Source of the DNA: an uncultured Acidimicrobiales bacterium
GTDB lineage: Bacteria; Actinomycetota; Acidimicrobiia; Acidimicrobiales; CAWCAL01
Length of the DNA: 64,000 nucleotides
Reading direction: 5' to 3'
NCBI GenBank assembly: GCA_963793475.1
Contig: CAWCAL010000003.1
Coordinates: 299,628 to 363,627, forward strand
Of the stretch, positions 6,659-64,000 are shown piece by piece. Each line of letters begins with the position of its first letter. Within the stretch, counting starts at the first letter, position 1. Position numbers and translations under genes: made by a program. The notes below the pieces were generated by a model. That model saw only the letters and a list, made by a program, of their open reading frames with translations. It made no database searches and had not been told where the DNA came from.

Positions 6659-6693
6659 CCGCTCCGAATCTGAGCTCGGAGATTTCTCCCGCG

Positions 6694-7326: not shown

Positions 7327-8276
7327 GGGTCTGGACCCGGTTCTGGTTCCGCGAGACCGACGACGACGCCTTCGTCCTGCTCCGCACGGTCCTGGGTGCG
7401 GTGGTGCTGATCTGGGCGGCCACCCTCTTGCCCGATCTCCACGACTTCCAGGGAGCGGACGGGCTCGTGCCCGATCGCCGGATCCGGGACTGGCAGTTCA
7501 CCTTCTTCCGCTGGACGGACGGCGTCGGGTTGGCGCTGACGCTCACGTGGGCCGGACTGGTGCTGAGCGCTGTCGGGATGGTCCTCGGCCGCCTGGTCCG
7601 GCTGGCGACCCCGCTGGCGGCGCTCTGCCTCATGTCGCTCCAGCAGGACAATCCGGTCATCACCAACGCGGGTGACGACCTGCTCCGGATCACCGTCGTG
7701 TACACCGCGGTCGTCGTTGTGCTCTGCCGCGCCGATGGAGTCGGGCGTCCGCTGCTGGGGCCGAGGGTCGAGTCGCTTCGCAGCACGATGCCGGTCTGGG
7801 GTCTGCGGCTCTTCCAGTTCCAGCTGACGGCGATCTACGTGGCCACCGTGTTCAAGAAGTGGCCCGGGGACACCTGGCAGGACGGCGAAGCCGCCCTCTG
7901 GGCCCTCCAACTGGTGCGACTGGAACGGTTCCCCGTCCCGGACCTGATCGCCTCGTCCGCTGCGATGGGCAAGGCCATGACCTGGGGAGCGCTCGGACTG
8001 GAGATCCTCTTGCCGGTGCTCCTCTGGATCCCCCGAACCCGGCGCTGGGGCATCTTCCTCGGGGTCGGGATGCACGCCTCCTTCGCCTACGCCATGCGGC
8101 TCGGAGTGTTCAGCGTGGCCATGACGGTCAACTACCTCAGCTTCCTCGACGCGGAGCTCATCCGGAAGGTGCTGGGCTGGCGTCCGGGTCGGGTGGCGAC
8201 CCCCGAGTCGCAATCGGTGTCAGCGGGAGCGACGGCGGCCGGCCGAGCGGACCCGGTTACGGATCCGACCGGCTGA
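7323..8276 (+). CDS. HTTM-domain (vitamin K-dependent gamma-carboxylase-like) polytopic membrane protein
   Basis: In-frame ATG at 7323 within track ORF 6780..8276. Sequence MRVWTRFWFRETDDDAFVLLRTVLGAVVLIWAATLLPDL... followed by multiple TM segments. The pattern matches the HTTM N-terminal signature as I remember it. Confidence 0.75.
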   Translation: MRVWTRFWFRETDDDAFVLLRTVLGAVVLIWAATLLPDLHDFQGADGLVPDRRIRDWQFTFFRWTDGVGLALTLTWAGLVLSAVGMVLGRLVRLATPLAALCLMSLQQDNPVITNAGDDLLRITVVYTAVVVVLCRADGVGRPLLGPRVESLRSTMPVWGLRLFQFQLTAIYVATVFKKWPGDTWQDGEAALWALQLVRLERFPVPDLIASSAAMGKAMTWGALGLEILLPVLLWIPRTRRWGIFLGVGMHASFAYAMRLGVFSVAMTVNYLSFLDAELIRKVLGWRPGRVATPESQSVSAGATAAGRADPVTDPTG

Positions 8277-10558: not shown

Positions 10559-11428
10559 GTGACCTTCCACCGCTCCGTCCTCGCCGTCGCCCTCCTGGCC
10601 TGCCTGGTCCTCGCGTCGTGCGGCGATGACGATGACGCATCAGCCGAGGGCTCCGGCGGCGAGACGGCCGAAGCGGGCGAGCGGCCCGTGGACCAGCCCG
10701 ATGTGACCGTGCCCGAGAACGCGCCCGACACGCTCGTCGTCGAAGACCTCACCGAGGGGACCGGGGCGGTGGTCGGGGCCAACGACAGGGTGCGCGTCGA
10801 CTACGTCGGCGTCGCACAGTCCACCGGTGAGCAGTTCGACTCCTCGTACGGACGGGAGCCGGTCGAGTTCCCGCTCAACGGGGTGATCCCGGGGTGGAGC
10901 GAGGGCCTGCTCGGGATGAAGGAAGGGGGCCGTCGGCAGCTGATCATTCCGGCCGACATGGCCTACGGCGATGACCCACCCGACGGCTCGGGGATCGCCC
11001 CCGGCGAGGCACTCGTCTTCGTCATCGACCTGCTGGAGGTGACCGTGGCGTATACCGACAAGCCCGAGGTCGACCTTCCCGAGGAGGCTCCGGCCGAACT
11101 GCTGATCGACGACATCGTGGTCGGCGACGGGGCGGAGATCGAGGCCGTCGAGCCAGGGACCATCGTCACCGTCCAGTACGTGGGCGTGTCGCTCTCCAGC
11201 GGTGAGGAGTTCGACAGCTCGTGGGACAACGGGAGCGGACCGGCCCAGTTCGACATCACCCAGGTGATCGAGGGATGGTCCCAGGGCCTGGTGGGGATGA
11301 AGGAGGGCGGCCAGCGACGCCTGGTCATCCCTCCCGACATGGGGTTCGGCGACGAACCGCCCGAGGGCTCCCCGATCTCAGCCGGCGACACCCTGGTCTT
11401 CGTCGTGGACCTGATCTCGGTCGCCTGA
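10559..11428 (+). CDS. Tandem-domain FKBP-type peptidyl-prolyl cis-trans isomerase lipoprotein
   Basis: Two FKBP domains: FDSSYGREPVEFPLNGVIPGWSEGLLGMKEGGRRQLIIPADMAYG and FDSSWDNGSGPAQFDITQVIEGWSQGLVGMKEGGQRRLVIPPDMGFG. The track start at 10505 lies inside the terminator hairpin. GTG 10559 gives a clean lipoprotein signal (TFHRSVLAVALLACLVLASCGDDDD). Confidence 0.9.
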   Translation: MTFHRSVLAVALLACLVLASCGDDDDASAEGSGGETAEAGERPVDQPDVTVPENAPDTLVVEDLTEGTGAVVGANDRVRVDYVGVAQSTGEQFDSSYGREPVEFPLNGVIPGWSEGLLGMKEGGRRQLIIPADMAYGDDPPDGSGIAPGEALVFVIDLLEVTVAYTDKPEVDLPEEAPAELLIDDIVVGDGAEIEAVEPGTIVTVQYVGVSLSSGEEFDSSWDNGSGPAQFDITQVIEGWSQGLVGMKEGGQRRLVIPPDMGFGDEPPEGSPISAGDTLVFVVDLISVA

Positions 11429-11863
11429 CGGCCTGAGGTCCATCGTGACGTGGTCGCTGGTGTCGCCCACCAGGTCGACCAGCGAGTAGTCCCGGCGTCG
11501 GAACCGCCATGATCCGTCGACGCGCTCGAAGTCGTCGTGGTAGCGGCCGACGATGATGGGCTGAAGCGGGATCCGGTCCGTCGCCTGCAGCACCGTGTAG
11601 GCGGAGCGGGCCGAGGCACGATCCCCGTCCACGAAGATCTGGGCGTTCGTGACGACGTGCCGGGTCCTGGGCGTGCCGTCGTCGTGGAGCTTCACCATGG
11701 TGCGCCACACGTCCAGCAGGGTGGTCGAGTCGACCGGCGGAGCGGCCGGATCCAGGACGATCTCGGCGTGGGCGAACAACTCGGCGGCCGCCTCGAGCCG
11801 ACCGCCGTCGATCAGCTCGGCGTACCGGTACAGCAGGTTGGCGATCTCGGCCTCGTCGGACAC
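11378..11863 (-). CDS. SnoaL-like / NTF2-fold protein
   Basis: GTG 11863 lies 4 nt after the stop of the upstream acyl-CoA dehydrogenase. Sequence SDEAEIANLLYRYAELIDGGRLEAAAELFAHAEIV...GRYHDDFERVDGSWRFRRR is typical of SnoaL_4-type proteins. The 3' end overlaps the FKBP gene by 51 nt and may be mis-set. Confidence 0.7.
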   Translation of the reverse strand: MSDEAEIANLLYRYAELIDGGRLEAAAELFAHAEIVLDPAAPPVDSTTLLDVWRTMVKLHDDGTPRTRHVVTNAQIFVDGDRASARSAYTVLQATDRIPLQPIIVGRYHDDFERVDGSWRFRRRDYSLVDLVGDTSDHVTMDLRPSGDRDQVHDEDQGVAG

Positions 11864-11867
11864 GGTG

Positions 11868-13103
11868 TCAGATGGGGAGATCGCCGGTGGCGGCTCGCGT
11901 GCTGCCGTGGTCCTTGTAGGCCGCAATGGTGCGCTGGGCGATGCGCATCTGATGGACCTCGTCGGCGCCGTCGGCGAATCGGGCCCAGCGGGCGTGCTGA
12001 TACATGTGCGCAAGGGGCGTGTCGGTCGAGTACCCCAGGGCGCCGTGGACCTGGATGGCGCGGTCGATGATCCGGTTGAGGCTGTTGGCCACGAAGTGTT
12101 TGGCCATCGAGACCTCACTCTTGAAATCCTGCCCGGTGTCGATCTTGTGGGCCGCGTGGAGCACCATGAGCTTGCACTGGTACATCTCCATGGCCGAGTC
12201 GGCGATCATCCACTGGATCCCCTGCTTCTCGGCCAGGATCGACCCGTGGGCGAACCGGTTCAGCGAGCGGTCCACCATCATGTCCAGCGCGGTCTCGGCC
12301 TGGGCGATCCAGCGCATGCAGTGCGCCAGCCGGGCCGGCCCCAGGCGGTACTGACCCAGCAGATGGCCCTGGCCCCGCCCGCCCAGCATCCGGTCCTTGT
12401 GGACCCGCAGGTCCTCGATGACGATCTCGGAGTGTCCGGTGGAGCCGTGCATGGTCTCGATCTGGCGCACCTCGTTCCACCCGTCCTGCGGGATGTCGAC
12501 GATGAACGCGGTGTTGGCGGCCTGCGGTCGGTCGGGGGCGTCCTCGGTGCGGACGATCAGGATGGCGAAGCTGGCCCGGTGGGCATTGGAGATGAACCAC
12601 TTGTGGCCGTTGATCACCCACTCGTCGCCGTCCTCGTAGCCCTGGGTCTGGATCAGCGTCGGATCGCTGCCCGCCACCTCGGGTTCGGTCATGGCGAAGC
12701 ACGACCAGGTCGACCCCTCGCAGAGGGGCCGCAGATACTGCTCCTTCTGCTCATCGGTCGCCCAGTGCAGCAGCGTGTGCATGTTGCCCTCGTCGGGAGC
12801 CTGGCAGTTCAGCACCCAGGGTCCGTAGTAGGACCGGGCCGACTCGGCCTGCACCATTGCCAGCTCGACGTGCCCCAGCCCCATGCCGCCCCACTCTTCG
12901 GGCATGTGTGGCAGCCACAGGCCGGCCGCATGGGCCTGCTTGCGCAGGTTGATCAGCGCGCTGATGTAGGCGTCGCGATCGTGCTTCTCCAGCTGGTCGG
13001 ACTGGATCCGGTCCTCCTCCGGCTTGACCACGTCGCGGATGAAGTCGCTGACGCGAACGCGGATCTCCTCGACCTCGGGCGGAAAGCTGAAGTCGATGGC
13101 CAT
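11868..13103 (-). CDS. Acyl-CoA dehydrogenase
   Basis: Intact 411-aa ORF. Motifs: CFAMTEPEVAGSDPTLIQTQGYEDGDEWVINGHKWFISNA and RFADGADEVHQMRIA. Confidence 0.92.
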   Translation of the reverse strand: MAIDFSFPPEVEEIRVRVSDFIRDVVKPEEDRIQSDQLEKHDRDAYISALINLRKQAHAAGLWLPHMPEEWGGMGLGHVELAMVQAESARSYYGPWVLNCQAPDEGNMHTLLHWATDEQKEQYLRPLCEGSTWSCFAMTEPEVAGSDPTLIQTQGYEDGDEWVINGHKWFISNAHRASFAILIVRTEDAPDRPQAANTAFIVDIPQDGWNEVRQIETMHGSTGHSEIVIEDLRVHKDRMLGGRGQGHLLGQYRLGPARLAHCMRWIAQAETALDMMVDRSLNRFAHGSILAEKQGIQWMIADSAMEMYQCKLMVLHAAHKIDTGQDFKSEVSMAKHFVANSLNRIIDRAIQVHGALGYSTDTPLAHMYQHARWARFADGADEVHQMRIAQRTIAAYKDHGSTRAATGDLPI

Positions 13104-13206
13104 GCGCAGTCCTCTCGGGGAACCGGGTGAAGGTGGCGGCCATCATCGCGTACCGCGGACGGATCGGGCAGGCCGGTACCGTGGCGCGACCGAACGGAGG
13201 TGACGC

Positions 13207-14697
13207 ATGGGCCAGTCCCGACCCGATGACCTGCCGATCAAGCTGGGCCCCTGCTCCAACGGCGAGTTCCTCCCGCCGCCGCCCAGTGCGGTGGTGCAGG
13301 AGACCGTGCGCCGAACCCGCGCCACCGCGGATCGCCACGCCCGCCGCTTGGGGATGAGCCGGCGCCGGTTCCTGCACACGGCATGCGGCTCGGCGCTCAT
13401 GCTGCTCACCCTCGACGCCTGCAGCCGGGAGGAGGCCGCGTCCAACGGCGGGTCGGCTCCCGGCGGGTCGTTCGCGACGACGCTGCCGCCCGGGGCGGTC
13501 GAGGATCAGGACGAAGCGGCACGCGTGCTGGCGGGCGACGAGTTCATCTTCGACGTCCAGGGGCACCTGTTGGACTACGACCTGTCGGACGGGAGTCCGT
13601 ACGACGGCTCTCCCTATCTCGGGCAGGCCTTCCCGCAGAAGGACTGCGGGGAGGACGACCCTCGGGCCTGCTTCTCGATCGAGCAGTTCGCCGATCTGGT
13701 CTTCCTGCAGAGCGACACCTCCGCCGTCGTGCTCTCCGCCCTCCCGCTGTTCGGGCCGGACAACCCGCTCTCGATCGAGTCGATGGAACGGGCCAGGGCC
13801 GTCATCGACGGCCTGTGCCGTGACGAGCGCGTGTCCGCCCAGGGCCAGGCCGCACCCAACCTGGGCGACCTGGAGGCGTCCCTGGAGGCCATGAGCGCGA
13901 TGCGGGAGCAGCACGACCTGGCGGCGTGGAAGCTGTATTGCCATGCGCCCGCTGACCGGGCCTTCTTTCTCGACGACCACGATCCGTCCGCACCGCAGAT
14001 CGGTCGAGCCCTGCTGGACCACCTCACCGAGATCGGGCCGCCGATCCTCTGCGTCCACAAGGGGCTCCGAGCCGTCGGCGGCGGCGCGGAGCGATTCGCC
14101 AGTCCGGTCGACGTGGGCCCGGCCGCCGTGACCCATCCGGACCTCTCCTTCGTCGTGTACCACTCGGGGTACGAGGCCGATGTGACCGAGGGGCCGTATC
14201 AGAACGAGGGCGAGCCGGCGGGGGTCGATCGCCTGGTCCGATCGCTGGCGGACGCCGGGGTGGGTGCCGGGTCCAACGTGTACGCCGAGCTGGGCAGCAC
14301 GTGGCGGGCGGTGATGGGTGATCCCGACCAGGCGGCCCATGTGCTGGGCAAGCTCCTGGTGGCGGTCGGGCCCGATCGGCTGGTGTGGGGCACCGATTCG
14401 ATCTGGTACGGGTCGCCGCAGGACCAGATCGAGGCGCTGCGGGCCTTCGAGATCACCGAGGAGTTCCAGGAACGTTTCGGCTATCCGGCGCTGACCCCGG
14501 CCGTGAAGGAACGGATCTTCGGGCTCAATTCAGCCGAGCTGTACGGAATCGAGCCCTCGGCCGTTTCCTGCACGTTCTCCCGCGACGAGTTGGCGATCGC
14601 ACGCCAAGAGCTGGCCCTCCCGTTCTCGACGTTCGGCCCCACCACGGCCCAGCAGGTCGACCAGCTCCTGGTGGACCACGGCGCGATCCTCGCCTGA
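13207..14697 (+). CDS. Amidohydrolase-family (TIM-barrel metal hydrolase) protein with a Tat-lipoprotein-like signal
   Basis: GGAGGTG at 13196..13202 precedes ATG 13207. The twin-arginine motif MSRRRFLHTACGSALMLLTLDAC begins at internal ATG 13354, which is an alternative start. C-terminal RLVWGTDSIWYGSPQ is typical of Amidohydro_2. Confidence 0.8.
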   Translation: MGQSRPDDLPIKLGPCSNGEFLPPPPSAVVQETVRRTRATADRHARRLGMSRRRFLHTACGSALMLLTLDACSREEAASNGGSAPGGSFATTLPPGAVEDQDEAARVLAGDEFIFDVQGHLLDYDLSDGSPYDGSPYLGQAFPQKDCGEDDPRACFSIEQFADLVFLQSDTSAVVLSALPLFGPDNPLSIESMERARAVIDGLCRDERVSAQGQAAPNLGDLEASLEAMSAMREQHDLAAWKLYCHAPADRAFFLDDHDPSAPQIGRALLDHLTEIGPPILCVHKGLRAVGGGAERFASPVDVGPAAVTHPDLSFVVYHSGYEADVTEGPYQNEGEPAGVDRLVRSLADAGVGAGSNVYAELGSTWRAVMGDPDQAAHVLGKLLVAVGPDRLVWGTDSIWYGSPQDQIEALRAFEITEEFQERFGYPALTPAVKERIFGLNSAELYGIEPSAVSCTFSRDELAIARQELALPFSTFGPTTAQQVDQLLVDHGAILA

Positions 14698-51098: not shown

Positions 51099-53190
51099 TC
51101 ACAAGAGCGCAGCGTCCACGATCTGGTCCTCTGACAACAACACGTGCGCTGCGGCCGCGCCGAGGGGGATCGGCGAGTCGAGGCCGCAGACCCGACGGAT
51201 CTCGCCGGAGAAACCCTCGGTGACCAGTGCGGTGATGATCGCCTCACCCACTCCCCCGGTGGGACGGGTCTCGTCGGCCACCAGGACCCGGCCGGTGGCC
51301 GCAGCGTCGCGGAGGAGATCCTCGACGGGAAGTGGTGCCAGCCAGCGCAGGTCGACGACCCGGGCGTCGACCCCGGCCTCGGCCAACCGGCGCTGCGCGC
51401 GCAACGAGAGGAAGAGCCCGTTCGCCCAGGTGACGATCGTCAGATCCCGGCCGACACCGTGCGTGCGGGCGCGCCCGAGCGGCACGTGGCCGTCATGGGG
51501 TGCCGCCGTCCACAGCCCGTCGCCCTCCTCGTGCAGATCGACGGTGTGGTAGCGAGCGATCGGTTCGAGGAAGGCGCAGACCGCTCCGTCGACACCGGCC
51601 GCTGCGAGGCAGGTGCGCAACATCGGCCCCGCGTCGTCGGGGTGGCCCGGCGACGCGATCACCAGTCCGGGGATGTCCCGCAGGACCGCGACCGAGTTGT
51701 CGTTGTGAAAATGGCCGCCGAATCCCCTCTGGTGGGCGTAGGCAGCGATGCGCACCACCATCGGGTTGCGGTACTGCCCCTGCGAGAAGAACGACAGGGT
51801 GGCCGCCTCGCCCCGCAGCTGGTCCTCGGCGTTGTGCAGGTACGCCAGATACTGGATCTCGGGAACCGGAAGGAACCCGTTGACCGCGCTTCCCAGCGCA
51901 AGGCCCAGGATCGACTGCTCGTCCAGTTCGGTGTCGAAGACCTGCTGCGATCCGTGGCGTCGCTGGAGGCCGCGCGTCACGCCGTAGACGCCGCCCTTGC
52001 CCCCGACGTCCTCACCGAAGACCAGCACGCCCGGATCGGCGGCGAGGGCCGCGTCCAATGTGTGGTTGATCGTCTGCGCCAACGTCCGGGGCGTGTTGTC
52101 GTCGGACGCGTGACCCGCCAGCTCCCGAGCCGCATCCGCGACCCTCTCGGGGTGGCGCACGGCGAGCGGGCCGATGATCGTCTGCGCCGAGGTGAGCTCG
52201 GGCTCGGCGAGCAGCGAGCTTGCCCGTGAACGGATCTCGGTTCGCAGGTCGAGATACCAGCTGACCAGATCGTCGGGCCGAGCCTCGCCGCACCCGACGA
52301 GCAGCCGCGCCGTGGCCAGGATGGGGTCGCGAGCGCGGTCAGCTCGCACCGCAGCCGGATCCCGGTACGCCGATTCGGCGTCGCTCCCGGCGTGCCCGAG
52401 GAACCGAACCGTCCGGAGGTGCAGGAACGCAGGAGTGCCGTCGCGCCGCGCCGCACCGACTAGCTCGGCGGTGGTCTCGAGCACACCGGTGGGATCGGTG
52501 CCGTCGGCCGCGGCCCAGCGCAGCCCGGGGCGAGCCGAGGTGGAGCGCTCGACCCACTCGGGTGGGGTGGGCACGCTGATGCCGAGACCGTTGTCCTCGC
52601 ACACGAACAGGATCGGGCATCGTTCGCCGACGTGGGCGGCGAGTGCAGCCCGATTGAGGGCCCCCTGGGCGGTCGAGTGGTTCAGCGAGGCGTCGCCGAA
52701 ACTGCAGGTCACGACCGAGTCGGCCGGCCAGGTCGTCCCGGCTTCCGGAGCGGCGCGCTCGAGGCTGAGGGCGAGGCCGACCGCACGAGGGAGGTGGGAC
52801 GCAATGGTCGAGGTCTGCGGGATGACGGACAGCTCACGCCGACCGAACACCTTGTGACGTCCGCCGGCCATGGGCTCGGTGGAGCGGGCCAGCAGACCGC
52901 GCAGGACGTCGTCGACCGGGTCCACGCCCGGGACCGTTCCGGCGCGCGGCGACGTAGAACCCGCCCGACCGGTAGTGGAGCAATGCGGGGTCGGACGGCC
53001 CCAGCACCATGGCGACTGCCGCATTGGCCTCATGACCGGCCGACGCGATCGTGTAGTAGCCGTGGCCCCCCGCTCGGAGCCATCGGGCCGTGTGGTCGAG
53101 CAGGCGGCTGGTGACCTGCGCCTCGAGGAGCAGGTCGAGCGCCAGCGGATCGAAGGTCGCACTCGGCCAGGCCGTTCCATCCGGCACCAA
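51099..53190 (-). CDS. Fused alpha/beta TPP-dependent 2-oxoacid dehydrogenase E1 component (one frameshift as assembled)
   Basis: Track ORFs 52834..53190 and 51099..53279 join as ...ASAGHEANAAVAMVLGPSDPALLHYRSGGFYVA | ...GTVPGVDPVDDVLRGLLARSTEPMAGGRHKVFG..., with the frame change near 52940..52950. The alpha part carries GDASLNHSTAQGALN. The beta part carries VFGEDVGGKGGVYGVT and DTELDEQSILGLALG. The start is uncertain (GTG 53190 or TTG 53193; the in-frame stop is at about 53245). Confidence 0.85.
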
Positions 53191-53248
53191 CGAGACGACG
53201 CCGTCGAGCAGCGCGGCTTCGAGCGGGTCGAGGTCGTCGGGCAGATCG

Positions 53249-54310
53249 ATGCGTCACTCTTGCGCCGTCCTTCCGGCACCGCAACAGTGGGTCATCGCCC
53301 ATTCCGAATCCTCCGACCCGGTCGAGCCCACGCGTGCGATCGACCCTCGGGAACCCGTCGACCCGGAACCGCGACCGGTCCTGGTCATCCACGGTGTCGC
53401 TCATCGCGACCGTGCCGCGTTCGAGAAGGAAGTCGCCACCCTCGGTGCCGCGCTCGGGCCCGGGTGTCGACTGGTGCCCGTCTACTGGGGAGACTTCGCC
53501 CGCCGGGCCGACTCGGTGGATCAGGTCCTGCCCTACCTGGATTGGGCGTCCTCCGCCGGCGACGACGTCCTGGGCGAGGTCGAATCGTCCTCCCTTCGCG
53601 GTGCGCTGGCCGACCGCGACATGGCCCAGGCCTTCGGCTCACTGACCAGCGGATGGAAACGTCGCAGCGCTTCCTCGCGCCGCAAGGTGATCGGCGTCTT
53701 CTACGCAATCATCCGGCGCCAGTACCTGCGGGCGTCGGCGCAGTTCACGGGCGACCTCATCCTGTACCAGCGGCGAAAGGTCGAGCTCCACGCGGTGATC
53801 TGGGAGACGGTCATGCGCCACGCACCCGGGTACGGGATCCGGGAACGGCCGATCGATGTCATCGCCCACTCGTTGGGCGCCACGATGATGTTCGATCTCG
53901 CCGTTGAAGGGCACCCCGCGCTCCACATCGACCACCTCATCACCTGCGCCAGCCAGACCGGGTTCTTCCACGCGATCGGTGCCTCGCCGTCGCCGCTCGA
54001 CCGCGTCGACCCCGACGACCTGGTCGACCTCCCACCCACGATCCGATCGTGGGCCAATCTCTACGTGCCGCTGGATCCGTGGGCCTTCCTCACGGCTCCG
54101 GTGTTCCGGTTGCACGACGCCAGCGAGCCCGATGACATCGAGGTGTACGCGGGCGAGCGGGGCGACCGCATCCTGACCCACGCCGCCAGCCACTATTGGA
54201 CCCACCCGGTCGTGCTCGAAACCATCCGACGCGAGCTCGGGCTCCCACCTCCGGATCCGGCTGTCGATAGCCTGCAGCCGGCCCCGACGACCGACGAGGA
54301 GGTGACATGA
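53249..54310 (+). CDS. Alpha/beta-hydrolase-like protein of unknown family, translationally coupled to selD
   Basis: In-frame ATG 53249 within track ORF 53090..54310. Sequence PVLVIHGVAHRD, the nucleophile-elbow-like DVIAHSLGATMMFDL (xHSxG), then later NLYVPLDPWAF and THAASHYWTHP. Its stop at 54308..54310 overlaps the selD ATG at 54307 (ATGA). Confidence 0.6.
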   Translation: MRHSCAVLPAPQQWVIAHSESSDPVEPTRAIDPREPVDPEPRPVLVIHGVAHRDRAAFEKEVATLGAALGPGCRLVPVYWGDFARRADSVDQVLPYLDWASSAGDDVLGEVESSSLRGALADRDMAQAFGSLTSGWKRRSASSRRKVIGVFYAIIRRQYLRASAQFTGDLILYQRRKVELHAVIWETVMRHAPGYGIRERPIDVIAHSLGATMMFDLAVEGHPALHIDHLITCASQTGFFHAIGASPSPLDRVDPDDLVDLPPTIRSWANLYVPLDPWAFLTAPVFRLHDASEPDDIEVYAGERGDRILTHAASHYWTHPVVLETIRRELGLPPPDPAVDSLQPAPTTDEEVT

Positions 54311-55347
54311 GCGACACGAATCCACCCCGACTGACCCAGTTCAGCCACGGCGCCGGTTGAGGCTGCAAGCTCGCCCCGGGCGAGTTGGCGCAGGTGCTGC
54401 GCCGGATGCAGACCGACCCACCGGAGAATCTTCTCGTCGGCACCGCAACGGGTGACGACGCAGCGGTCTGGCGGATCGACGCCGATCGAGCGCTCATCTC
54501 CACCGTCGACTTCATCACGCCGGTGGTGGACGACGCGCGCACCTGGGGCCGCGTCGCCGCGGCCAACAGCGTCTCGGATGTGTACGCCATGGGAGGTCGA
54601 CCGCTGTTCGCCCTCAATCTGGTGGGTTGGAACACCGACGTCCTGTCGACGGAACTGCTCGGGGAGCTTCTGGCCGGTGGCCAGGACATCGCGACCGACG
54701 GTGGCTTCGCCGTTGTCGGTGGCCACACGATCGACGACCCCGAACCCAAGTACGGGCTGTCGGTCGTCGGCGAGGTCCACCCCGACCGCATCCTGACCAA
54801 CGCCGGACTTCGGCCGGACCAGGACCTGATCCTGACCAAGCCGCTGGGCATCGGGGTCATCACCACCGCGATCAAGTCCGGCGACGCACCGGAGCCGGTC
54901 ATGGACGCCGCGGTGGCGTCGATGACCAGGCTCAACGATGAGGCATCCCGAGTGGCGCTCGCCTCGGGTGCCTCGGGGTGCACCGACGTCACCGGGTTCG
55001 GGCTGCTGGGTCACCTGGGCCGGATGGCGCTCGAGTCGGGGGTGCAGGCGACCATCGAGGTTGCGTCGGTGCCCCAGCTGCCGGGGAGCCGCGACCTCGC
55101 TGCGCAGGGCGCGATCCCGGGCGGAAGCCGGCGCAACCTCGCGTGGAGCGAGTCCTTCCTGGACGCCGGAGGCCACGACGAGCTGACGCGCCTGCTGCTC
55201 GCCGATGCGCAGACGTCCGGCGGGCTCGTGTTCGGCGTTCCGCCGGTCCGGACCGACGATGCACTGGCCCGGCTGGCCGATGGCGGCCACACCGCCGCCC
55301 GCATCGGCCGGACCAGCTCCGGCCCCGCCGGGATCGCGCTCCGGTAG
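54307..55347 (+). CDS. selD: Selenide, water dikinase (selenophosphate synthetase) with in-frame UGA = selenocysteine
   Basis: The track ORF starts at internal Met 54385 because of TGA 54358..54360. Reading from ATG 54307 gives MSDTNPPRLTQFSHGAG-U-GCKLAPGELAQVLRRM..., which is the SelD N-terminal GAG(C/U)GCK active-site loop. Downstream motifs: GDDAAV, DFITPVVDD, NSVSDVYAMGG and GGHTIDD. Confidence 0.9.
54367..54386 (+). promoter_or_regulatory. Candidate SECIS-like hairpin 7 nt after the selD UGA
   Basis: aagctcgccccgggcgagtt. AA(g)CTCGCC pairs with GGCGAGTT with one bulged G and a 3-5 nt apical loop. A second hairpin, ggcgcag-gtg-ctgcgcc, follows at 54387..54403. Not validated against any SECIS model. 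Confidence 0.35.
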
Positions 55348-55479
55348 CGGTCCGAGCCCCCCTGGTGTGGACGGGAGAAACCTCGTCGGCAGAGGACCTT
55401 CGGCCCTCCCGCGATCACCTCGGGTCGTGGTGTGATCGGAGGAAGAGCAGGACCGAGCGGAAGGATCGCGACCGTGGCC

Positions 55480-56052
55480 ATGAGAAGCGCCAGCCTGGTG
55501 GATGACCAGCTTGCGGCCCAGATCGACGTGGCCGAAGCGCGCCTCGCGGCCTTTCTGACCTGTCTCGACGAGGTGTCCGACCAGTCGATCCGCCGCCGAC
55601 TCACGGTGCGGGCCGAAGGGGTCGACCGGCGCTGCTCGACCCTCCGGGCCACCGTGGGCGAGCCCACTCCCATCCCGATCGGGACACCGACGGCGGTCGA
55701 AGACCTCGGAGCGACGATGGACACGCTCGAAGCCGATCTGGACGCTGCGACCCAGGTCGAGGCCGGCCCCTACAAGGCGGCCGCCGATCGGCAGGCTCGG
55801 GCGTGGCGGGGCCGCACCGACCGGCTCCGGGTGCAGGCGGCGCTGGGTGTCATGGAACTGAAGGACGACCTGGAGGGTCTGGCCCGTCGGCTCGACCACG
55901 TACGGGCTTCGGCCCTCGTGGAACTGCGTGAAGCGGTCAGCGATGCCAGGGATGGCGTCGAGGACGTTCGGGGCGACATGGAGGAGGTGCTCGGCGACCT
56001 GCGCCGAGCCGTCGACCGAGCGGTCGGGGCGATCGGCGACCCGGCGCCATGA
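55480..56052 (+). CDS. Hypothetical all-helical acidic/basic protein, translationally coupled to the radical SAM gene
   Basis: In-frame ATG 55480 within track ORF 55432..56052. Sequence MRSASLVDDQLAAQIDVAEARLAAFL...LKDDLEGLARRLDHVRASALVELREAVSDARDGVEDVRGDMEEVLGDLRRAVDRAV. Its stop overlaps the ATG at 56049 of the next gene (ATGA). Confidence 0.55.
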   Translation: MRSASLVDDQLAAQIDVAEARLAAFLTCLDEVSDQSIRRRLTVRAEGVDRRCSTLRATVGEPTPIPIGTPTAVEDLGATMDTLEADLDAATQVEAGPYKAAADRQARAWRGRTDRLRVQAALGVMELKDDLEGLARRLDHVRASALVELREAVSDARDGVEDVRGDMEEVLGDLRRAVDRAVGAIGDPAP

Positions 56053-57141
56053 CGGCGGTGGCCACCCGCTACTGGCACACCCTGGATGACGGGCGGGTCC
56101 AGTGCGATGTGTGCCCTCGAGCCTGCAAGCTGCGCGACGGGCAGAAGGGCGTGTGCTTCGTGCGCGGTCGGGTCGGTGACGGCATCGTCCTCCACACGTA
56201 CGGCCGCTCGAGCGGGTTCTGCGTCGACCCGATCGAGAAGAAGCCGCTCAACCACGTCCTCCCCGGCTCGACCACCTTCTCCTTCGGCACGGCCGGCTGC
56301 AATCTCGCCTGCCGGTTCTGCCAGAACTGGGACATCTCCAAGTCCAAGGAGATCGACACCCTCGCCGCCTCGGCCACCCCCGAGATGATCGCCGGAGCTG
56401 CGGACGACCTGGGGTGCCGCAGCGTGGCGTTCACCTACAACGATCCGACCATCTTCCTCGAGTACGCCATCGATGTCGCCGAGCGCGTGTCACGCTCGGG
56501 GCCTCCGGACCGTTGCCGTCACCGCCGGCTACATCTGTCCGGAGCCGCGAGCCGACTTCTATCGCCACCTCGATGCGGCCAATGTCGACCTGAAGGGGTT
56601 CAGCGAGGACTTCTACCGGCACACATGCGGGGCCGAGCTCGGCGCGGTCCTGGACACGCTGCGATACCTCGACGAAACCGACGTCTGGGTCGAGCTCACC
56701 ACCCTGTTGATCCCCGGACTCAACGACAGCGACGCCGAGCTGGACGCCATGACTGCGTGGGTCGTCGACCACCTCGGCCCTGACGTGCCCATGCACTTCT
56801 CGGCCTTCCACCCCGACTACCGGATGCTGGACCGACCGCCGACACCGCCCGAGACGCTCAGCCACGCCCGGTCCAGAGCACTCGCCAACGGCGTGCGCTA
56901 CGCCTACACCGGCAATGTCCACGACCGCGCCGGGCAGTGCACGGCCTGCGCCGCCTGCGGCGAGGTGGTGATCGACCGCGACTGGTACCGGCTGGGTCGC
57001 TACGAGCTGGACGACTCCGGCCATTGCCGGTCGTGCGGTGCGAGGATCCCCGGCATCTTCGACGGACCCTGCGGCGACGGCATCGCCACGAGTCGCCCGG
57101 TCACGCTGCACTCACCACCCGACCGGGAGCCGACCCCATGA
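56049..57141 (+). CDS. AmmeMemoRadiSam system radical SAM enzyme (one frameshift as assembled)
   Basis: Track ORFs 56049..56783 and 56473..57141 join as ...IFLEYAIDVAER | CHARGLRTVAVTAGYICPE..., with the frame change near 56484..56488. Motifs: N-terminal CDVCPRACKLRDGQKGVC, the radical SAM site GTAGCNLACRFCQNW, and a C-terminal 4-Cys ribbon CTACAACG...CRSCG. Confidence 0.85.
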
Positions 57142-57944
57142 GTACCACGCCGCGCACCGTCCGTCCTCCCGCCGTGGCCGGCACGTTCTACCCGGCCCAA
57201 CCCAGCGTGTTGCGCAGCGCGCTCCGGCGAGCCTTCGCTCGCGCCGAGCGGCCCCGCGCCGGAGCGCCCACCCCCCGAGCGCTGGTCGTCCCGCATGCCG
57301 GGTACGTGTACTCCGGAGCGGTCGCCGCCGGCGGATACCTTCGCTTGCGGCGAGCGACGCCGACCATCGAGCGGGTGGTCCTGCTCGGCCCCAGCCACTT
57401 CGTCCCCCTGGACGGTGTCGGCGTCTCCGGAGCCGACGCGTTCGCCACACCGCTGGCCGACGTGATCGTCGACGACGAGGCCCGGTCCAGGGTGCTCTCG
57501 CTTCCGGGCGTCGGGTTGAACGATGAAGCACACGAGCAGGAACACAGCTTGGAAGTGCAGCTCCCGTTCCTCCAGACCGTCCTCGACGGCTTCACCCTGC
57601 TTCCCCTTGTGGTCGGTCGGGCCGATCCCGACGATGTCGCCCGGCTCATCGACTCGTTCTGGGACGAGCCGGGGACGGTCATCGTGGTCAGCACCGATCT
57701 CTCCCACTATCACCGCTACGCCGACGCGGTTCGGCTGGACGCCCGGACCGCCGCCGCCATCGTCGCCGGGCGGGCCGACGCGATCGGCGACGCCGATGCC
57801 TGCGGGGCACGACCGCTGAGGGGGCTCCTCATCGCCGGAGGTCGCCGAGCGTGCCGGGTCGAGCGGATCGACCTCCGCAACTCGGGTGACACCACGGGGG
57901 ATCGGCAACGAGTGGTCGGGTATGGAACCTTTGCCGTCGCCTGA
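57138..57944 (+). CDS. AmmeMemoRadiSam system protein B (MEMO1 family)
   Basis: ATG 57138 overlaps the preceding stop (ATGA). Motifs: AGTFYP, VVPHAGYVYSG, LLGPSH, EHSLEVQLPFLQ and STDLSHYH. Confidence 0.85.
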   Translation: MSTTPRTVRPPAVAGTFYPAQPSVLRSALRRAFARAERPRAGAPTPRALVVPHAGYVYSGAVAAGGYLRLRRATPTIERVVLLGPSHFVPLDGVGVSGADAFATPLADVIVDDEARSRVLSLPGVGLNDEAHEQEHSLEVQLPFLQTVLDGFTLLPLVVGRADPDDVARLIDSFWDEPGTVIVVSTDLSHYHRYADAVRLDARTAAAIVAGRADAIGDADACGARPLRGLLIAGGRRACRVERIDLRNSGDTTGDRQRVVGYGTFAVA

Positions 57945-58555
57945 CCCCGTCCTCCTCACCGAGGAGGTCGACCGGCTGTTCGACGACGCACTCGAGGCCA
58001 TCGTCGGGGGTCTGGACGGTCGGCCACCGACCCTCCGGCCGCTGTCGACCCTTCCCGCCGGGCTCCGTTCCTCGATCGGGTCCTTCGTGAGCCTGTACGT
58101 CGACGACGAGCTGAACGGGTGCATCGGCACCGTCGAGCGGGTCGAACCGCTCGGTCGGGCGGTCCCACGGCTGGCGTGGTCCGCAGCATTCGGCGACCCA
58201 CGGCTTCCCCGCTGCTGCGGTCGTCCGGGATCGACCGGCTCACCATCGAGATCTCCCTGCTGTCCGCGCTCGCACCGATCGGTGCCGACTCGTCGAGACG
58301 CTGATCGAGCTCGTACTGCCTCGATGCGACGGTGTGGTCGTCCGGGCCGGCGGGCGGCAGGGATTGTTCCTGCCGAGCGTGTGGGGGCAGCTACCCGACC
58401 CCGACGCCTTCGTCGCCCAGCTCTTCCACAAGGCGGGTCTGACGCCCGGATCCTGGCCGGTCGGGACGCAGGCCCACCGCTTCACGACCACGACCTACCG
58501 GCGGGGCCCGAGCCGCCGGCCGGCCGACCCGGCCGGGATCAGAGCTTCCCGATGA
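57922..58555 (+). CDS. AmmeMemoRadiSam system protein A (AMMECR1 domain; two frameshifts as assembled)
   Basis: Three track ORFs (57886..58665, 58119..58304, 58334..58555) join into one protein. The sequence runs MEPLPSPDPV...GSFVSLYVDDELNGCIGTVE...AAFGDPRLP | PLLRSSGIDRLTIEISLLSALAPIGADS | VETLIELVLPRCDGVVVRAGGRQGLFLPSVWGQLPD... Frame changes fall at the C-run 58207..58210 and near 58290. Confidence 0.8.
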
Positions 58556-59012
58556 TCTCCTCGGCGTGCGCCGCGGTCTTCGGCCGCTTGAAGACATGCT
58601 GGATGACACCGTCCTCGTCGATGAGGAACGTCGTGCGCTGCAGTCCCGTGAACGTCTTTCCGTAGTTCTTCCGCTCGCCCCAGACGCCGTACTGCTCGAT
58701 GATGGTCCGGTCGGGATCGGCCACCAGCGGGAACGTCAGGTCGTGCTGCTCGGTGAACCGCTCGTGGCTGCTGTCGTCGTCCGGCGAGATGCCGATGACG
58801 GCGATCCCGTGCTCCTCCAGGAGTGCGAGATTGTCCCGGAGGTTGCAGGCCTGTGCGGTACAGCCCGGGGTGTTGTCCTTCGGGTAGAAGTACACCACCA
58901 CCTTTCGGCCCCGAAGCTCGGCGAGGTCGATGACCGTTCCGGTGTGGGTGGTGGCGGTGAACAGGGGCGCCGGTTGTCCGGCGTTCAGCGGGTCGGGTTT
59001 CGCGGCCATCAA
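58539..59012 (-). CDS. bcp: Peroxiredoxin Bcp (thioredoxin-dependent thiol peroxidase)
   Basis: Intact 157-aa ORF. Sequence VVVYFYPKDNTPGCTAQACNLRD carries the CxxxxC pair, followed by FPLVADPD. Confidence 0.9.
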   Translation of the reverse strand: MMAAKPDPLNAGQPAPLFTATTHTGTVIDLAELRGRKVVVYFYPKDNTPGCTAQACNLRDNLALLEEHGIAVIGISPDDDSSHERFTEQHDLTFPLVADPDRTIIEQYGVWGERKNYGKTFTGLQRTTFLIDEDGVIQHVFKRPKTAAHAEEIIGKL

Positions 59013-61901: not shown

Positions 61902-63920
61902 GAGCCGTCGGGGGCGTCGGCCGCCTCGAGCGCCACGAGAAGGTCACCGGTGTCGACGCGGTCGCCGACCGCAAAGGGCACGTCAGCGACCACCGCCGAG
62001 CCGACCGCCGTGATCCTGTGTTCCATCTTCATCGCCTCGACGACCATCAGGAGCTGGCCGTCGGCCACGCGGTCGCCGGCGTCGACGTGGACGGCGATCA
62101 CCGTGCCCGGAAGAGGGCAGATCGGTCCCCCGCCGGCCGATTCCGCCTCGTGATCCTCGAAGCGGGGGGCCCGCTGCCATGTGAGGGTGCCGGCCCGACT
62201 GCCGGTGATCGCAGTGGGGCCGTCCAGCCGGACCTCGATCACTCGCCGTAGACCGTCGAGCTCGATGACCTGGCGACCGGGAGCACGGGCCAGGAGCCGG
62301 ACCACCGCCGTTCGTCGTTCGTCAGGGGCGAGCGTGCCGTCCTCGGTGATCTCGGGCCAGGGACCGACCTTGACCGCCGCGACCTCGTCCTCGAGGACGT
62401 ATTCGAGCGGTTGGGGCACACCGTCGACGAGCCAGACCTCGCGTCGGCCCTGGGTGCGGAGATTGCGCCAGCCCGATGGGGCGAACCCGGTGACCGGGTC
62501 GGCGGCACGATCGGCGCGGTCGGACTCGAACACCGCCCCCAGCAGGAGTGCCAGCCGGTCGTCACCGGCCGGGCCGCCGCCACCGAGCGTCTCAGGGTGG
62601 CTGTCGAGGTAGGAGGTGGGCGTCCGCGCCGCGCCGAAATCGTCCTCGTCGAGAATCGCCACCAGGCTGGCCAGGTTGGTCCGGACGCCGGAGACACATG
62701 CGGTCCGCAGGGCGCGGGAGAGCCGCCGAACGGCCTCGTCCCGGGTGGGAGCGTGGGCGATGACCTTGGCCAGCAGGGAGTCGTAGTCGGGCGTGACCTC
62801 GGTCCCGGCGCGTACCCCGGCGTCGACGCGGACGTGATCGCCGATCCGGAACGCGCCGAGCCGGCCGGTGGAGGGCATCCAGTCGCGCGGCCGGGTCTTC
62901 CGCCACGAGTCGGACCTCGACGGCATGACCATCGGTGACGATCTCGTCCTGTGAGACGGGCAGGGGTTCGCCCGCCGCCACCCGCAACTGCAGCTCGACC
63001 AGATCGAGCCCGGTGACCGCCTCGGTGACCGGGTGTTCCACCTGGAGGCGGGTATTCACCTCGAGGAAGTTCACCCGTCCGTCGTCGGCGACGAGGAACT
63101 CGACCGTGCCGGCGTTCTCGTACCCGACGCTGCGGGCCAGGGCCACGGCCCCATCGCACAGAGCCCGGCGCGTGCTCTCGTCGATACCGGCCGACGGGGC
63201 CTCCTCGACGACCTTCTGATTGCGACGCTGGATCGAGCACTCCCGCTCGCCGAGATGGAGGACGCCGCCATGGGCATCGCCCATGATCTGCACCTCGATG
63301 TGCCGGCCGTGCTCGAGGTAGGGCTCGATGAAAACGGTGCCGTCCCCGAACGCCGACGCTGCCTCGCGCGACGCCGACTCGACGGCGTCGGCCAGCTCGT
63401 CCGCCTGCCGAACGATGCGCATGCCGCGACCGCCGCCGCCCGCAGCCGCCTTGACCAGGGCGGGCATGGCCACGTCGTCGGGAATGGCTCCCGGCGCGGC
63501 GGCGAGCGCCGGCGTCGTGGGCACTCCTGCGTCGACGGCGGCCTGTTTGGCCGCCACCTTGTCGCCGAGCAGGGCGATCTGGTCGGCGGTCGGTCCGACC
63601 CAGATGATCCCGGCATCGATCACGGTTCGGGCGAAGGTCGCGTTCTCGGCCAGGAATCCGTAGCCGGGGTGGATGGCCTGACAGCCGGTGTCCAGCGCGG
63701 CCTGCACGATCAGCTCGCCCCGGAGGTACGACTCGGCGGGCGAGGCGCCACCCAGCGCAACGGCCAGGTCGACCGTGTCGACGTGGAGCGCATCGGCGTC
63801 GGGCTCGGCGTAGACCCCGACCGTCCCCATACCCAGTCGGTGCGCGGTTCGGGCGATGCGCACTGCGATCTCGCCTCGGTTGGCGATGAGCAGCCGGGAG
63901 ATGGGACGGGCCGGTGCCAT
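61898..63920 (-). CDS. Biotin-dependent acyl-CoA carboxylase alpha subunit (biotin carboxylase + BCCP; MCC/geranyl-CoA carboxylase type; one frameshift as assembled)
   Basis: Track ORFs 62592..63920 and 61898..62932 join as ...GHAVEVRLVAEDPAA | (R)DWMPSTGRLGAFRI..., with the frame change near 62884..62890. Motifs: LLIANRGEIAVRI, KAAAGGGGRGMR, NTRLQVEHPVTE and the biotinylation site VVEAMKMEH. Confidence 0.9.
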
Positions 63921-64000
63921 CAGTGCCGCCAGACCCCGTACTCGGTTGCGCCTTGAACCACATTGCTGTGCGCGGCCGAGAGCGCCATGCCCAGCACCGT
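63920..64000 (-). CDS. Carboxyltransferase (beta) subunit of the acyl-CoA carboxylase, C-terminal 26 codons only (5' part beyond the window)
   Basis: Reverse translation gives ...TVLGMALSAAHSNVVQGATEYGVWRH*, which resembles the ...FGVFRM C-terminus of MCC/PCC beta subunits. Its stop overlaps the alpha-subunit ATG (TGATG). Confidence 0.6.
   Translation of the reverse strand, partial: TVLGMALSAAHSNVVQGATEYGVWRH

Follow-up and report, generated by a model that had tools for sequence, protein, structure and literature searches.

Two selenoproteins are the most widespread in bacteria, and one of them is the form of selenide water dikinase (selenophosphate synthetase, SelD) that contains selenocysteine (Sec) (PMC1794560; PMC13188914). 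The catalogued Sec-containing SelDs belong to the TIGR00476 family and carry Sec in a glycine-rich loop, and in their genes the UGA is directly followed by a stem-loop within the coding region (PMC1794560; PMC13188914). The criteria used in this study for a bSECIS element are an apical loop of 3–9 nt on a stem of 4–16 bp, a G within the first two loop positions, a distance of 16–37 nt from the UGA and a minimum free energy (MFE) of −7.5 kcal/mol or lower (PMC13188914, Fig. 2 legend). A second described system is the sen cluster for selenoneine biosynthesis, senA-senB-senC, in which the selD homolog has senA (EgtB-like) and senB (TIGR04348) as neighbors; senB was uncovered by the criterion that it overlaps selD (bioRxiv 10.1101/2022.04.13.486033).

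The window analyzed here, a 64-kb stretch of DNA from an uncultured Acidimicrobiales bacterium, contains a selD gene that is similar to the catalogued ones in its family, in the position of its Sec codon within the glycine-rich loop and in the coding-region stem-loop directly after the UGA. It differs from them in having two stacked hairpins rather than one and in its uncultured, Acidimicrobiales-type host; nothing essential differs. The features of selD, as identified by translation, profile scores, related loci, folding and alignment, are as follows.

54307-55347, + strand: selD, 346 codons including one Sec codon (translation and profile scores).
54358-54360, + strand: UGA codon 18, read as Sec in the loop HGAG-U-GCK (translation and related loci).
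54368-54386, + strand: hairpin 1, 7–8 bp with loop CCG, a conserved lower or auxiliary helix (folding and alignment).
54387-54403, + strand: hairpin 2, GGCGCAG-GUG-CUGCGCC, bSECIS-type and predicted to bind SelB (folding, covariation and comparison of TGA with Cys loci).

The translation of selD was interrupted by a single internal stop, the TGA at codon 18, in the context MSDTNPPRLTQFSHGAG*GCKL. Codons 13–22, SHGAG-U-GCKL, correspond to the catalytic Cys/Sec site of SelD, with the Lys three residues on. When Cys was put at the stop, the protein scored 373.7 bits against TIGR00476 (cutoff 125) and 358.9 bits against NF002098 (cutoff 299) in profile searches, and its Pfam domains were AIRS (PF00586, 9.4e-25) and AIRS_C (PF02769, 1.4e-15). 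The TGA was shared with four independent related assemblies (L003, L004, L005, and L006) and was found in 62 of 72 metagenomic relatives of SelD. Among the motif-bearing loci, 68 of 78 had TGA at the Sec site and the other 10 had TGC or TGT, which encode Cys. An in-frame UGA aligned with the Cys of homologs, as expected of a bacterial selenoprotein gene, thus marks selD as a predicted selenoprotein gene. The initial annotation had placed a TGA in the catalytic loop of selD and had attributed to it the truncated ORF that starts at 54385. Both statements agree with the translation, the related loci and the ORF list, in which the selD region is represented by just a 320-aa ORF from TTG 54385. Sec in SelD is not unusual, as it is the majority state in the lineage of the window and is documented as widespread (PMC1794560; PMC13188914). 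Gene callers cut selD at the Sec codon, as they do almost all close relatives, which yields proteins of 313–320 aa vs. about 346. The significance of this selD is mainly one of annotation: truncation at the Sec codon hides the true N-terminus of SelD as well as the overlap with the upstream gene.

Both hairpins folded as initially described, with energies of −10.9 kcal/mol (z −3.0) for hairpin 1 and −11.3 kcal/mol (z −3.1) for hairpin 2. Hairpin 2 agrees with all four bSECIS criteria: its stem is 7 bp, its 3-nt loop GUG has G and U at positions 1 and 2, the apical GUN loop begins 33 nt past the UGA, and its folding energy is below the limit. Hairpin 1, with its loop CCG and a spacing of 15 nt, departs from the rules for the loop G and the distance. 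The earlier proposal of a SECIS-compatible hairpin after the UGA, for which bacterial SECIS scoring had been suggested, therefore holds for hairpin 2, which also covaries and is absent from the Cys-type relatives, but not for hairpin 1. The spacing of hairpin 2 is near the upper limit of the 16–37 nt range because hairpin 1, which is also conserved, separates this SelB-type hairpin from the UGA.

Conservation and covariation of the hairpins were directly observed among 58 distinct related sequences. Over both hairpins, 94.8% of cells were paired, compared with 30–41% when the partners were slid, and compensatory double changes occurred in 9 of 15 pairs; none of 500 shuffles reached the observed values. 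For hairpin 1, 92.2% of cells were paired and 5 of 8 pairs showed compensatory changes, and the corresponding values for hairpin 2 were 97.8% and 4 of 7 pairs. For instance, 25 sequences had GC at pair 42-46 of hairpin 2, whereas 20 had CG. Moreover, at least six of the seven pairs of hairpin 2 were present in 58 of 60 TGA loci but in none of the 10 Cys loci, with means of 6.70 and 3.00 pairs, respectively, and the loop was GUN in 59 of the 60 TGA loci. The alignment thus points to a structure that is kept by compensatory change and is tied to the UGA. The apical part of hairpin 2 in the relatives, GCAGGUCCUGC, resembles the apex of the E. coli fdhF SECIS. Rfam offers no family for these hairpins: the whole window had no match at the gathering threshold, and with E up to 10 the SECIS region was unmatched in a search of 54300–54460, where the lone match, a chance one of 12 bits to a viral frameshift element, was on the wrong strand. 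A cleanly covarying two-hairpin SECIS of selD in Acidimicrobiia-type genomes could be used to train selenoprotein finders.

The gene upstream of selD and its junction with selD have the following features.

53249-54310, + strand: uncharacterized alpha/beta-hydrolase-like gene, 353 aa (translation, alignment and AF2 model).
53870-53872, 54074-54076, and 54179-54181, + strand: candidate triad Ser208, Asp276, and His311, respectively (50-sequence alignment and model).
54291-54310, + strand: hydrolase/selD junction, a Shine-Dalgarno-like GAGGAGGTG in the last hydrolase codons, then ATGA (read from the sequence).

As had been noted before, the selD ATG (54307-54309) overlaps the stop codon of the 353-aa ORF (TGA, 54308-54310), the four shared bases being the ATGA at 54307-54310. 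The overlap was also found in L003, L004, L005, and L006, and the purine-rich stretch 5' of it was kept in L003, L004, and L005. Over the five distinct loci the overlap was maintained at protein identities of 72–100%. Such an arrangement would be consistent with co-transcription and translational coupling of the hydrolase gene and selD. A promoter and terminator consensus scan of 52900–56200 gave zero sites on both strands, a result that is uninformative for an actinobacterium with 69% GC.

Triad conservation in the hydrolase was directly observed: in the alignment of 50 homologs, H207, S208, L209, G210, D276, H311, and H319 were invariant. The first four residues form the HSLG elbow (residues 207–210, 53867-53878). 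The protein also contains an oxyanion-type HG at residues 48–49 and a long helical insert at about 89–191. The AF2 model had a pLDDT of 76, with a confident alpha/beta core and strands at residues 42–48, 73–78, 202–207, 227–233, 265–272, and 295–298. S208 directly followed strand 202–207, D276 followed strand 265–272 and H311 followed strand 295–298, which gives the order beta-Ser-helix, beta-Asp, and beta-His. In the model, the protein thus has the predicted hallmarks of an alpha/beta-hydrolase, which are the core, a nucleophile elbow of the type G/A/H-x-S-x-G after a strand, then an acid and then a His. The initial description of a 353-aa protein with an HSLG elbow and candidate Asp and His was confirmed, and the protein belongs to no named family. 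The window protein matched nothing in Pfam and NCBIfam with E up to 1, including DDHD (PF02862) and the lipase Pfam models. Searches of the 50 members against curated models gave sub-threshold matches only, to families of the alpha/beta-hydrolase clan, of which Thioesterase (2.2e-4) was the best, followed by Abhydrolase_1 (3.7e-3); the others included Hydrolase_4, Tle3, DUF676, and PGAP1. A sequence-profile search of the PDB with the family alignment returned only noise.

Foldseek searches with the hydrolase model identified the DDHD-type NirD domain of Nir2 (PDB 9C37; E 5.7e-6) and lipases with E of 2e-3 to about 0.1, including the A. fulgidus lipase (2ZYR) and Bacillus LipA. The TM-scores of these matches were only 0.25–0.48 and the sequence identities 9–15%. 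DDHD lipases and NirD as well as the minimal lipases LipA and 2ZYR share the alpha/beta core and the GxSxG elbow with the hydrolase model. In NirD the catalytic Ser is no longer present (bioRxiv 10.64898/2026.06.03.729928; PMC12582312), whereas the family of the window keeps Ser, Asp, and His invariant. The hydrolase is a member of a small, unclassified alpha/beta-hydrolase family, of which 445 cluster representatives were found among 1.84 billion at E up to 1e-10, and DDHD-type and minimal lipases come nearest to its predicted fold. Fold and motifs suggest an esterase or lipase activity. As a small family that lacks a model, has an intact candidate triad and shows a DDHD/lipase-like fold, it would be of modest interest to the search for new enzymes.

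The distribution of the adjacency was observed directly in the related loci. selD follows the hydrolase gene in the window and in L003, L005, L006, and L004 (= L007), which are the closest relatives, with identities of at least 72%. These loci also share synteny for PFK, GT, ADH, E1, and radical SAM/Memo/AMMECR1 genes. No selD was found within 1.6–10 kb of the hydrolase gene in 17 other hydrolase loci (L001 = L009, L002 = L018, L008, L010–L017, and L019–L024), which include members with identities as high as 73% (L008) and 70% (L001 = L009). Conversely, the hydrolase gene was missing from every one of the 80 SelD-relative loci. The genes 5' of selD fell into 38 different clusters over 63 loci and elsewhere included those for SenA/SenB, SelA, an ACT-domain protein, an MFS protein, and a peroxiredoxin. 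Members of this SelD clade from other lineages adjoin senA-senB, selA or unrelated genes, and in a different hydrolase sub-clade it is PutA and a WS/DGAT acyltransferase that recur as neighbors rather than selenium genes. The hydrolase gene does not share a conserved neighborhood with selD across divergent lineages: the adjacency is restricted to a single narrow lineage and does not point to any new function in selenium metabolism.

The locus thus most probably holds a standard Sec-containing selD of an uncultured Acidimicrobiales-type actinobacterium, next to which the hydrolase is an incidental, lineage-specific neighbor. SelB and Sec-tRNA(Sec) would decode UGA codon 18 as Sec and may be recruited via the GUN-loop hairpin at 54387-54403, stacked on the second conserved helix at 54368-54386. 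Sec insertion at codon 18, which we infer, would give a selenophosphate-making SelD whose N-terminal glycine-rich loop carries the catalytic Sec. Transcription of selD is most likely from the promoter of the upstream hydrolase gene, and selD also has a strong Shine-Dalgarno sequence of its own inside the last hydrolase codons. The hydrolase is predicted to be a cytoplasmic serine hydrolase (Ser208-Asp276-His311) with a lipase/esterase-like fold that probably acts on a lipid or a different carboxylic ester. Its juxtaposition with selD would be recent, limited to one lineage and part of a longer syntenic block, and the two proteins would share no selenium pathway.

A different role of SelD, in which it feeds mainly or additionally a small-molecule pathway, as a SenC-like protein in selenoneine synthesis, and not only Sec-tRNA, with consumer genes elsewhere in the genome, is rather unlikely. 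Relatives of SelD with identities of 64–74% (L025–L028 and L048), which have the Sec codon, are divergent to the SenA and SenB genes. The SenA proteins of such loci scored 430 and 423 bits (cutoff 420), and SenB scored 301.8 bits (cutoff 300) and, in L025, 293.4 bits. SelD of the window is thus similar to the sen cluster in that it belongs to the same clade, in which the 64–74% relatives are SenC, and the reasoning that a gene overlapping selD is its partner is taken from the work on that cluster (bioRxiv 10.1101/2022.04.13.486033). Different from the sen cluster, however, neither the 64-kb window nor any of the hydrolase-linked loci contained a gene for SenA, SenB or FGE-sulfatase/DinB_2, a tblastn search with the L028 proteins SenA and SenB gave nothing in the window or in L003–L007, and the overlapping gene encodes an alpha/beta-hydrolase that is unlinked to selD outside a narrow clade. 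Moreover, a Sec-containing SelD requires the Sec pathway in any case, and Sec-tRNA synthesis must therefore be one consumer. Regarding the genes of the Sec pathway, the 64-kb window contained no tRNA and no tRNA-Sec in a tRNA scan, no selA by Pfam or tblastn, and no selB, as judged by Pfam on the ORFs of 1–40 kb and 62,955–63,953 and by reading translations for 40–63 kb. No other selenoprotein candidates were found in the window: besides that of selD, two in-frame TGAs were flanked by coding-like sequence, at 32318 and 49533, and both are ordinary gene boundaries.

A genuine functional partnership between the hydrolase and SelD in this clade, with the two genes forming a dedicated operon and the hydrolase perhaps being a new selenium-related enzyme, is very unlikely. 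Such an enzyme could, for instance, release selenide or a selenol from a selenium compound that is acylated or esterified, or it could process a selenophosphate-derived metabolite. The 4-base ATGA overlap and the gene order kept in the five distinct loci are in line with a partnership, ORF overlap with selD has been predictive of selenium genes (bioRxiv 10.1101/2022.04.13.486033), and the question of what supplies SelD with selenium in vivo has yet to be settled (PMC13188914). The 17 hydrolase loci without selD, two of them at 73 and 70% identity, the lack of the hydrolase gene in all 80 loci of SelD relatives and the PutA and WS/DGAT acyltransferase neighbors in the other sub-clade argue against it, however, and published surveys of selenium-linked genes contain no hydrolase, esterase or lipase (PMC5322559). 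In addition, the conserved adjacency is explained by recent common ancestry, because it lies inside the longer syntenic block common to the same relatives. The new selenium-related role that the initial annotation had considered for the hydrolase is thus unsupported, and at the level of gene neighborhood the family shows no phylogenetic association with selD, the result that the annotation itself had named as speaking against such a role. In its most specific form, a lipase-like hydrolase recruited to the selenium pathway in an Acidimicrobiales sub-clade, translationally coupled to SelD and with an activity unlike those of SelA, SelU, SenB, and YqeB/YqeC, the proposal is, if anything, even less probable. 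A hydrolase so recruited might cleave a carrier of the ester or thioester type to liberate a selenol or selenide, or its substrate might be a metabolite derived from selenophosphate, and, if real, it would represent a new class of selenium-pathway enzyme.

The reading of the TGA as a true stop, due to a sequencing error, to a pseudogene or to a split gene with TTG 54385 as the start of its real product, draws on apparent frameshifts in genes neighboring selD in the same assembly and on gene callers that begin the protein after the TGA. It is effectively refuted by the recurrence of the TGA across many independent samples, in which 68 of 78 related loci have it, by the 17 codons 5' of it, which encode the conserved SelD N-terminus and glycine-rich loop, and by a covarying hairpin found only where the selD codon is TGA. 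A sequencing error, considered since the neighbors are frameshifted, was ruled out by the independent assemblies and by the type of the neighboring errors, which are indels and not substitutions.

Finally, the C-terminal tail of the hydrolase was considered as a by-product of a fusion with selD; this was rejected because a member unlinked to selD (P0007/L008) is also long-tailed.

The selD gene (selenophosphate synthetase) was represented in the mechanical ORF list by just its 320-aa remainder, starting with TTG at 54385. The GC content of the window was 69%. With Cys substituted at the internal stop, SelD exceeded the cutoffs of the NCBIfam equivalog TIGR00476 selD (373.7 bits, cutoff 125) and of NF002098 (358.9 bits, cutoff 299), and possessed the AIRS and AIRS_C domains. 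The features of selD and of its junction with the upstream gene for an alpha/beta-hydrolase-like protein, hereafter the hydrolase, were as follows.

53249-54310, plus strand, hydrolase ORF, 353 aa (translation)
54307-55347, plus strand, selD, 346 codons with one internal stop (translation)
54307-54309 and 54308-54310, plus strand, selD ATG and hydrolase stop TGA, forming an ATGA overlap (sequence reading)
A few bases 5' of the selD ATG, plus strand, Shine-Dalgarno-like GAGGAGGTG within the last hydrolase codons (sequence reading)
54358-54360, plus strand, in-frame TGA of selD, context MSDTNPPRLTQFSHGAG*GCKLAPGELAQVLRR

The coordinates of the initial annotation, which had described a selenocysteine (Sec)-encoding selD coupled to the hydrolase gene, were all right within one base by translation and sequence reading. 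The 120 SelD homologs listed as closest in the protein database (P0121-P0240) nearly all had called lengths of 313-320 aa, which is the signature of the same truncation. These called proteins start past the Sec codon, and their records lack the N-terminal catalytic loop. Upstream partners of Sec-type selD would go unseen in neighbourhood screens that require annotated ORFs to overlap selD. The selD locus is chiefly useful as a clean example of a covarying SECIS and as a reminder of gene-caller truncation in the SelD family.

Compared with intact relatives in the related loci L006 and L003, three neighbouring genes were broken by apparent single-base insertions.

51099-53190, minus strand, fused E1 2-oxoacid dehydrogenase, frameshifted near 52926-52948
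56049-57141, plus strand, AmmeMemoRadiSam radical SAM enzyme, frameshifted near 56484
57886-58665, plus strand, AMMECR1-like gene, frameshifted after about 58170-58213

These shifts look like indel errors in a MAG assembled from long reads; alternatively, the genes may be true pseudogenes. Unlike these neighbours, the hydrolase gene and selD were themselves intact. Because adjacent genes look frameshifted, an assembly error was also considered for the selD TGA. The identical TGA, its HGAG-U-GCK context and the ATGA overlap were found in four independent related assemblies (L003, L005, L006, and L004, whose contig is also that of L007). Moreover, an HGAG-[C/U]-GCK-type motif was recovered in 72 of 80 metagenomic loci encoding SelD relatives (49-76% identity), and the codon at the Sec site was TGA in 62 of these 72 and TGC or TGT in the other 10. 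A sequencing error was rejected given this recurrence, which bears out the Sec-encoding selD of the initial annotation. The recurrence in related assemblies and in the majority of SelD relatives suggests that Sec is the rule at this codon within the lineage, in agreement with the literature. This part of the observation is correct and well supported, and is already known biology.

As RNA, positions 54355-54420 folded into two adjacent hairpins inside an outer closing helix (-36.1 kcal/mol, z -2.66).

54368-54386, plus strand, hairpin 1, -10.9 kcal/mol folded alone, z about -3
54387-54403, plus strand, hairpin 2, GGCGCAG-GUG-CUGCGCC, -11.3 kcal/mol folded alone, z about -3

No shuffled sequence folded as well as either hairpin alone. 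The bSECIS model comprises an apical loop of 3-9 nt on a stem of 4-16 bp, a G among the two opening loop nucleotides (as a rule G then G/U), a UGA-to-loop distance of 16-37 nt, and MFE <= -7.5 kcal/mol (PMC13188914, Fig. 2 legend). Hairpin 2 agreed with this model on 4 of 4 points (loop GUG, 7 bp, 33 nt, -11.3 kcal/mol), and hairpin 1, with a CCG loop at 15 nt, fell outside it. In a gap-free alignment of the SECIS region with 58 distinct sequences, the two-hairpin structure paired in 94.8% of cells, compared with 30-41% when the 3' partners were slid by 1-3 columns, and 9 of 15 pairs had changes on both sides. None of 500 shuffles reached any of the observed measures. As an internal control, at least six of the seven hairpin 2 pairs were found in 58 of 60 TGA loci vs 0 of 10 Cys-codon loci (means of 6.70 and 3.00 pairs, respectively), and the loop of hairpin 2 was GUN in 59 of 60 TGA loci. 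The SECIS-compatible hairpin noted earlier after the UGA is supported, with hairpin 2 as the one that fits the model. The comparative evidence for a functional SECIS is strong, and Sec would be inserted at the selD UGA.

The loop-closing pair of hairpin 2 (within 54391-54399; alignment columns 40-48) occurred as G-C 25 times and as C-G 20 times among the aligned sequences. Read in frame, the switch couples two amino-acid changes in SelD, Gln-Leu becoming His-Val at residues 29 and 31; the RNA structure thus constrains the protein sequence and drives correlated substitutions at these two residues.

ARAGORN found no tRNA in the window. Pfam searches, which covered coding-like ORFs between 1 and 40 kb plus one ORF at 62,955-63,953, identified no SelA, SelB, SelU, YqeB/C, FdhA, SenA, or SenB, and ORFs of 40-63 kb were judged by reading translations only. 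SenA, SenB, and SelA from related loci, used as tblastn queries, found nothing in the window. A window scan for further in-frame TGAs flanked by coding-like sequence returned only two, both ordinary gene boundaries. Thus, the Sec machinery would be encoded outside the window, on the rest of the 474-kb contig or genome.

Neither Pfam nor NCBIfam had a model that matched the hydrolase. Its close homologs in a database search numbered about 60, with 43-85% identity and lengths of about 290-350 aa; almost every one came from Acidimicrobiia/Actinomycetota metagenomes or MAGs. Proteins of 380-420 aa in Streptomyces and others formed a more distant group. Members of both sets were all annotated as hypothetical or generic alpha/beta hydrolase. 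The family is small: when 1.84 billion cluster representatives were searched with a profile, 445 matched at E up to 1e-10. In an alignment of 50 sequences, H207-S208-L209-G210, D276, H311, and H319 were invariant and H48-G49 nearly so. A relaxed Pfam scan of all 50 members gave only sub-threshold matches, all within the alpha/beta-hydrolase clan (Thioesterase, Hydrolase_4, Abhydrolase_1/6, Tle3 phospholipase, DUF676, and PGAP1). The AlphaFold model (m6c8de882a90b; mean pLDDT 76, core above 90) had the canonical order of strand-Ser-helix, strand-Asp and strand-His, and a long helical insert at residues ~89-191 would form a cap. In the best-supported reading, the hydrolase would be an active serine esterase/lipase whose family is unclassified.

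The top Foldseek PDB match of this model was the NirD domain of Nir2 (9C37, E 5.7e-6), with A. fulgidus lipase and numerous entries for Bacillus lipase A next; a eukaryotic DDHD-type domain thus ranked ahead of bacterial lipases. NirD contains a DDHD region that is homologous to DDHD1/2 lipases but no longer has the catalytic serine (bioRxiv 10.64898/2026.06.03.729928; PMC12582312). Different from NirD, the hydrolase family retains Ser, Asp, and His. No DDHD match was found at the sequence level. Judged from the model, the hydrolase may be a bacterial relative of DDHD intracellular lipases with an intact Ser-Asp-His triad.

A new selenium-related role had been speculated for the hydrolase. Among the contexts of 22 distinct hydrolase loci, selD directly followed the hydrolase gene in five: the window, L003, L005, and L006 (83-86% identity) and L004, identical to L007 (72-73%). 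These loci share the flanks of the window, with PFK, glycosyltransferase, ADH, and E1 genes upstream and radical SAM, Memo, AMMECR1, and peroxiredoxin genes downstream; therefore, the adjacency belongs to a block inherited from a recent shared ancestor. The remaining 17 loci, including L008 (73%), L001 (identical to L009; 70%), and all members of 33-58% identity, had neither selD within the available 1.2-10 kb nor shared flanks. In a neighbour-joining tree, the selD-linked hydrolases lay in one sub-clade, with the two unlinked members branching inside or beside it. In the reverse test, none of the 80 SelD-relative loci had a hydrolase homolog within 4 kb. Across 63 loci, the gene directly upstream of selD belonged to 38 different clusters, and ACT-domain, MFS, amidohydrolase, and peroxiredoxin genes were also among the neighbours. 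The speculated role found no support from gene neighbourhood in either test, and a functional connection between the hydrolase and SelD is very improbable. ATGA overlaps of 4 bases are frequent between unrelated neighbours in compact high-GC genomes. The hydrolase/selD overlap is real and conserved over a short evolutionary distance only. In the simplest account, selD would have come to sit straight behind the hydrolase gene in one Acidimicrobiales sub-lineage, where it would be expressed together with the hydrolase gene; selD also has a strong ribosome-binding site of its own. Searches for selenium-linked genes, one of them by ORF overlap with selD, recovered selA, senB, selU, yedF, and DUF3343, and no hydrolase was reported (bioRxiv 10.1101/2022.04.13.486033; PMC5322559).

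Recurrent neighbours of the 52-58% identity hydrolase group were a convergent PutA gene and, a few kb off, a wax-ester synthase/DGAT gene. The bifunctional PutA (Pro_dh and Aldedh, about 1130 aa) was convergent with the hydrolase gene in L010-L014 and L017 (about 10870-14400 and about 4270-7360, minus strand), and a wax-ester synthase/diacylglycerol acyltransferase gene lay within ~5 kb in five loci of this branch. As these MAGs are related, the loci are not independent observations; they give a faint hint of lipid metabolism, which has nothing to do with selenium.

Directly 3' of selD, the window contained the following ORF, without Pfam or NCBIfam match.

55432-56049, plus strand, 206-aa ORF with coding-like GC3

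Just its first ~90 residues matched a short ORF preceding the radical SAM gene in L003. In L003 and L004, the place after selD was instead taken by a minus-strand gene of 207 aa and a BTAD regulator; thus, the region 3' of selD is variable. The AmmeMemoRadiSam system just 3' of selD was complete (radical SAM, Memo-like, and AMMECR1; 56049-58500, plus strand) and was syntenic in L003 and L006.

SelD relatives of 64-74% identity neighboured SenA and SenB in five marine metagenome loci (L025-L028 and L048), where senB-senA was divergent from selD/senC.

L025, 1603-5035, senB-senA divergent from selD/senC
L028, 1608-5041, senB-senA divergent from selD/senC, as also in L026, L027, and L048

The NCBIfam equivalog scores were 430 and 423 bits for SenA (cutoff 420) and 293-302 bits for SenB, including 301.8 (cutoff 300). 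As in the window, the selD/senC genes had the Sec codon together with the SECIS hairpins. These loci are predicted selenoneine clusters in which the enzyme making selenophosphate is a selenoprotein as well. By analogy, SelD of the window might also supply a selenoneine pathway encoded elsewhere, which is unlikely and would not exclude other roles. Sec-type selD genes had varied, mostly unrelated neighbours. SelA adjoined selD in L052 and was elsewhere beside mostly Cys-type selD; selA was also near selD in L091, where the motif search did not recover the selD codon. The selD genes directly beside selA were Cys-type (TGC/TGT) in L050, L052, L099, and L104, at about 750 in L050 and about 4000 in the other three.
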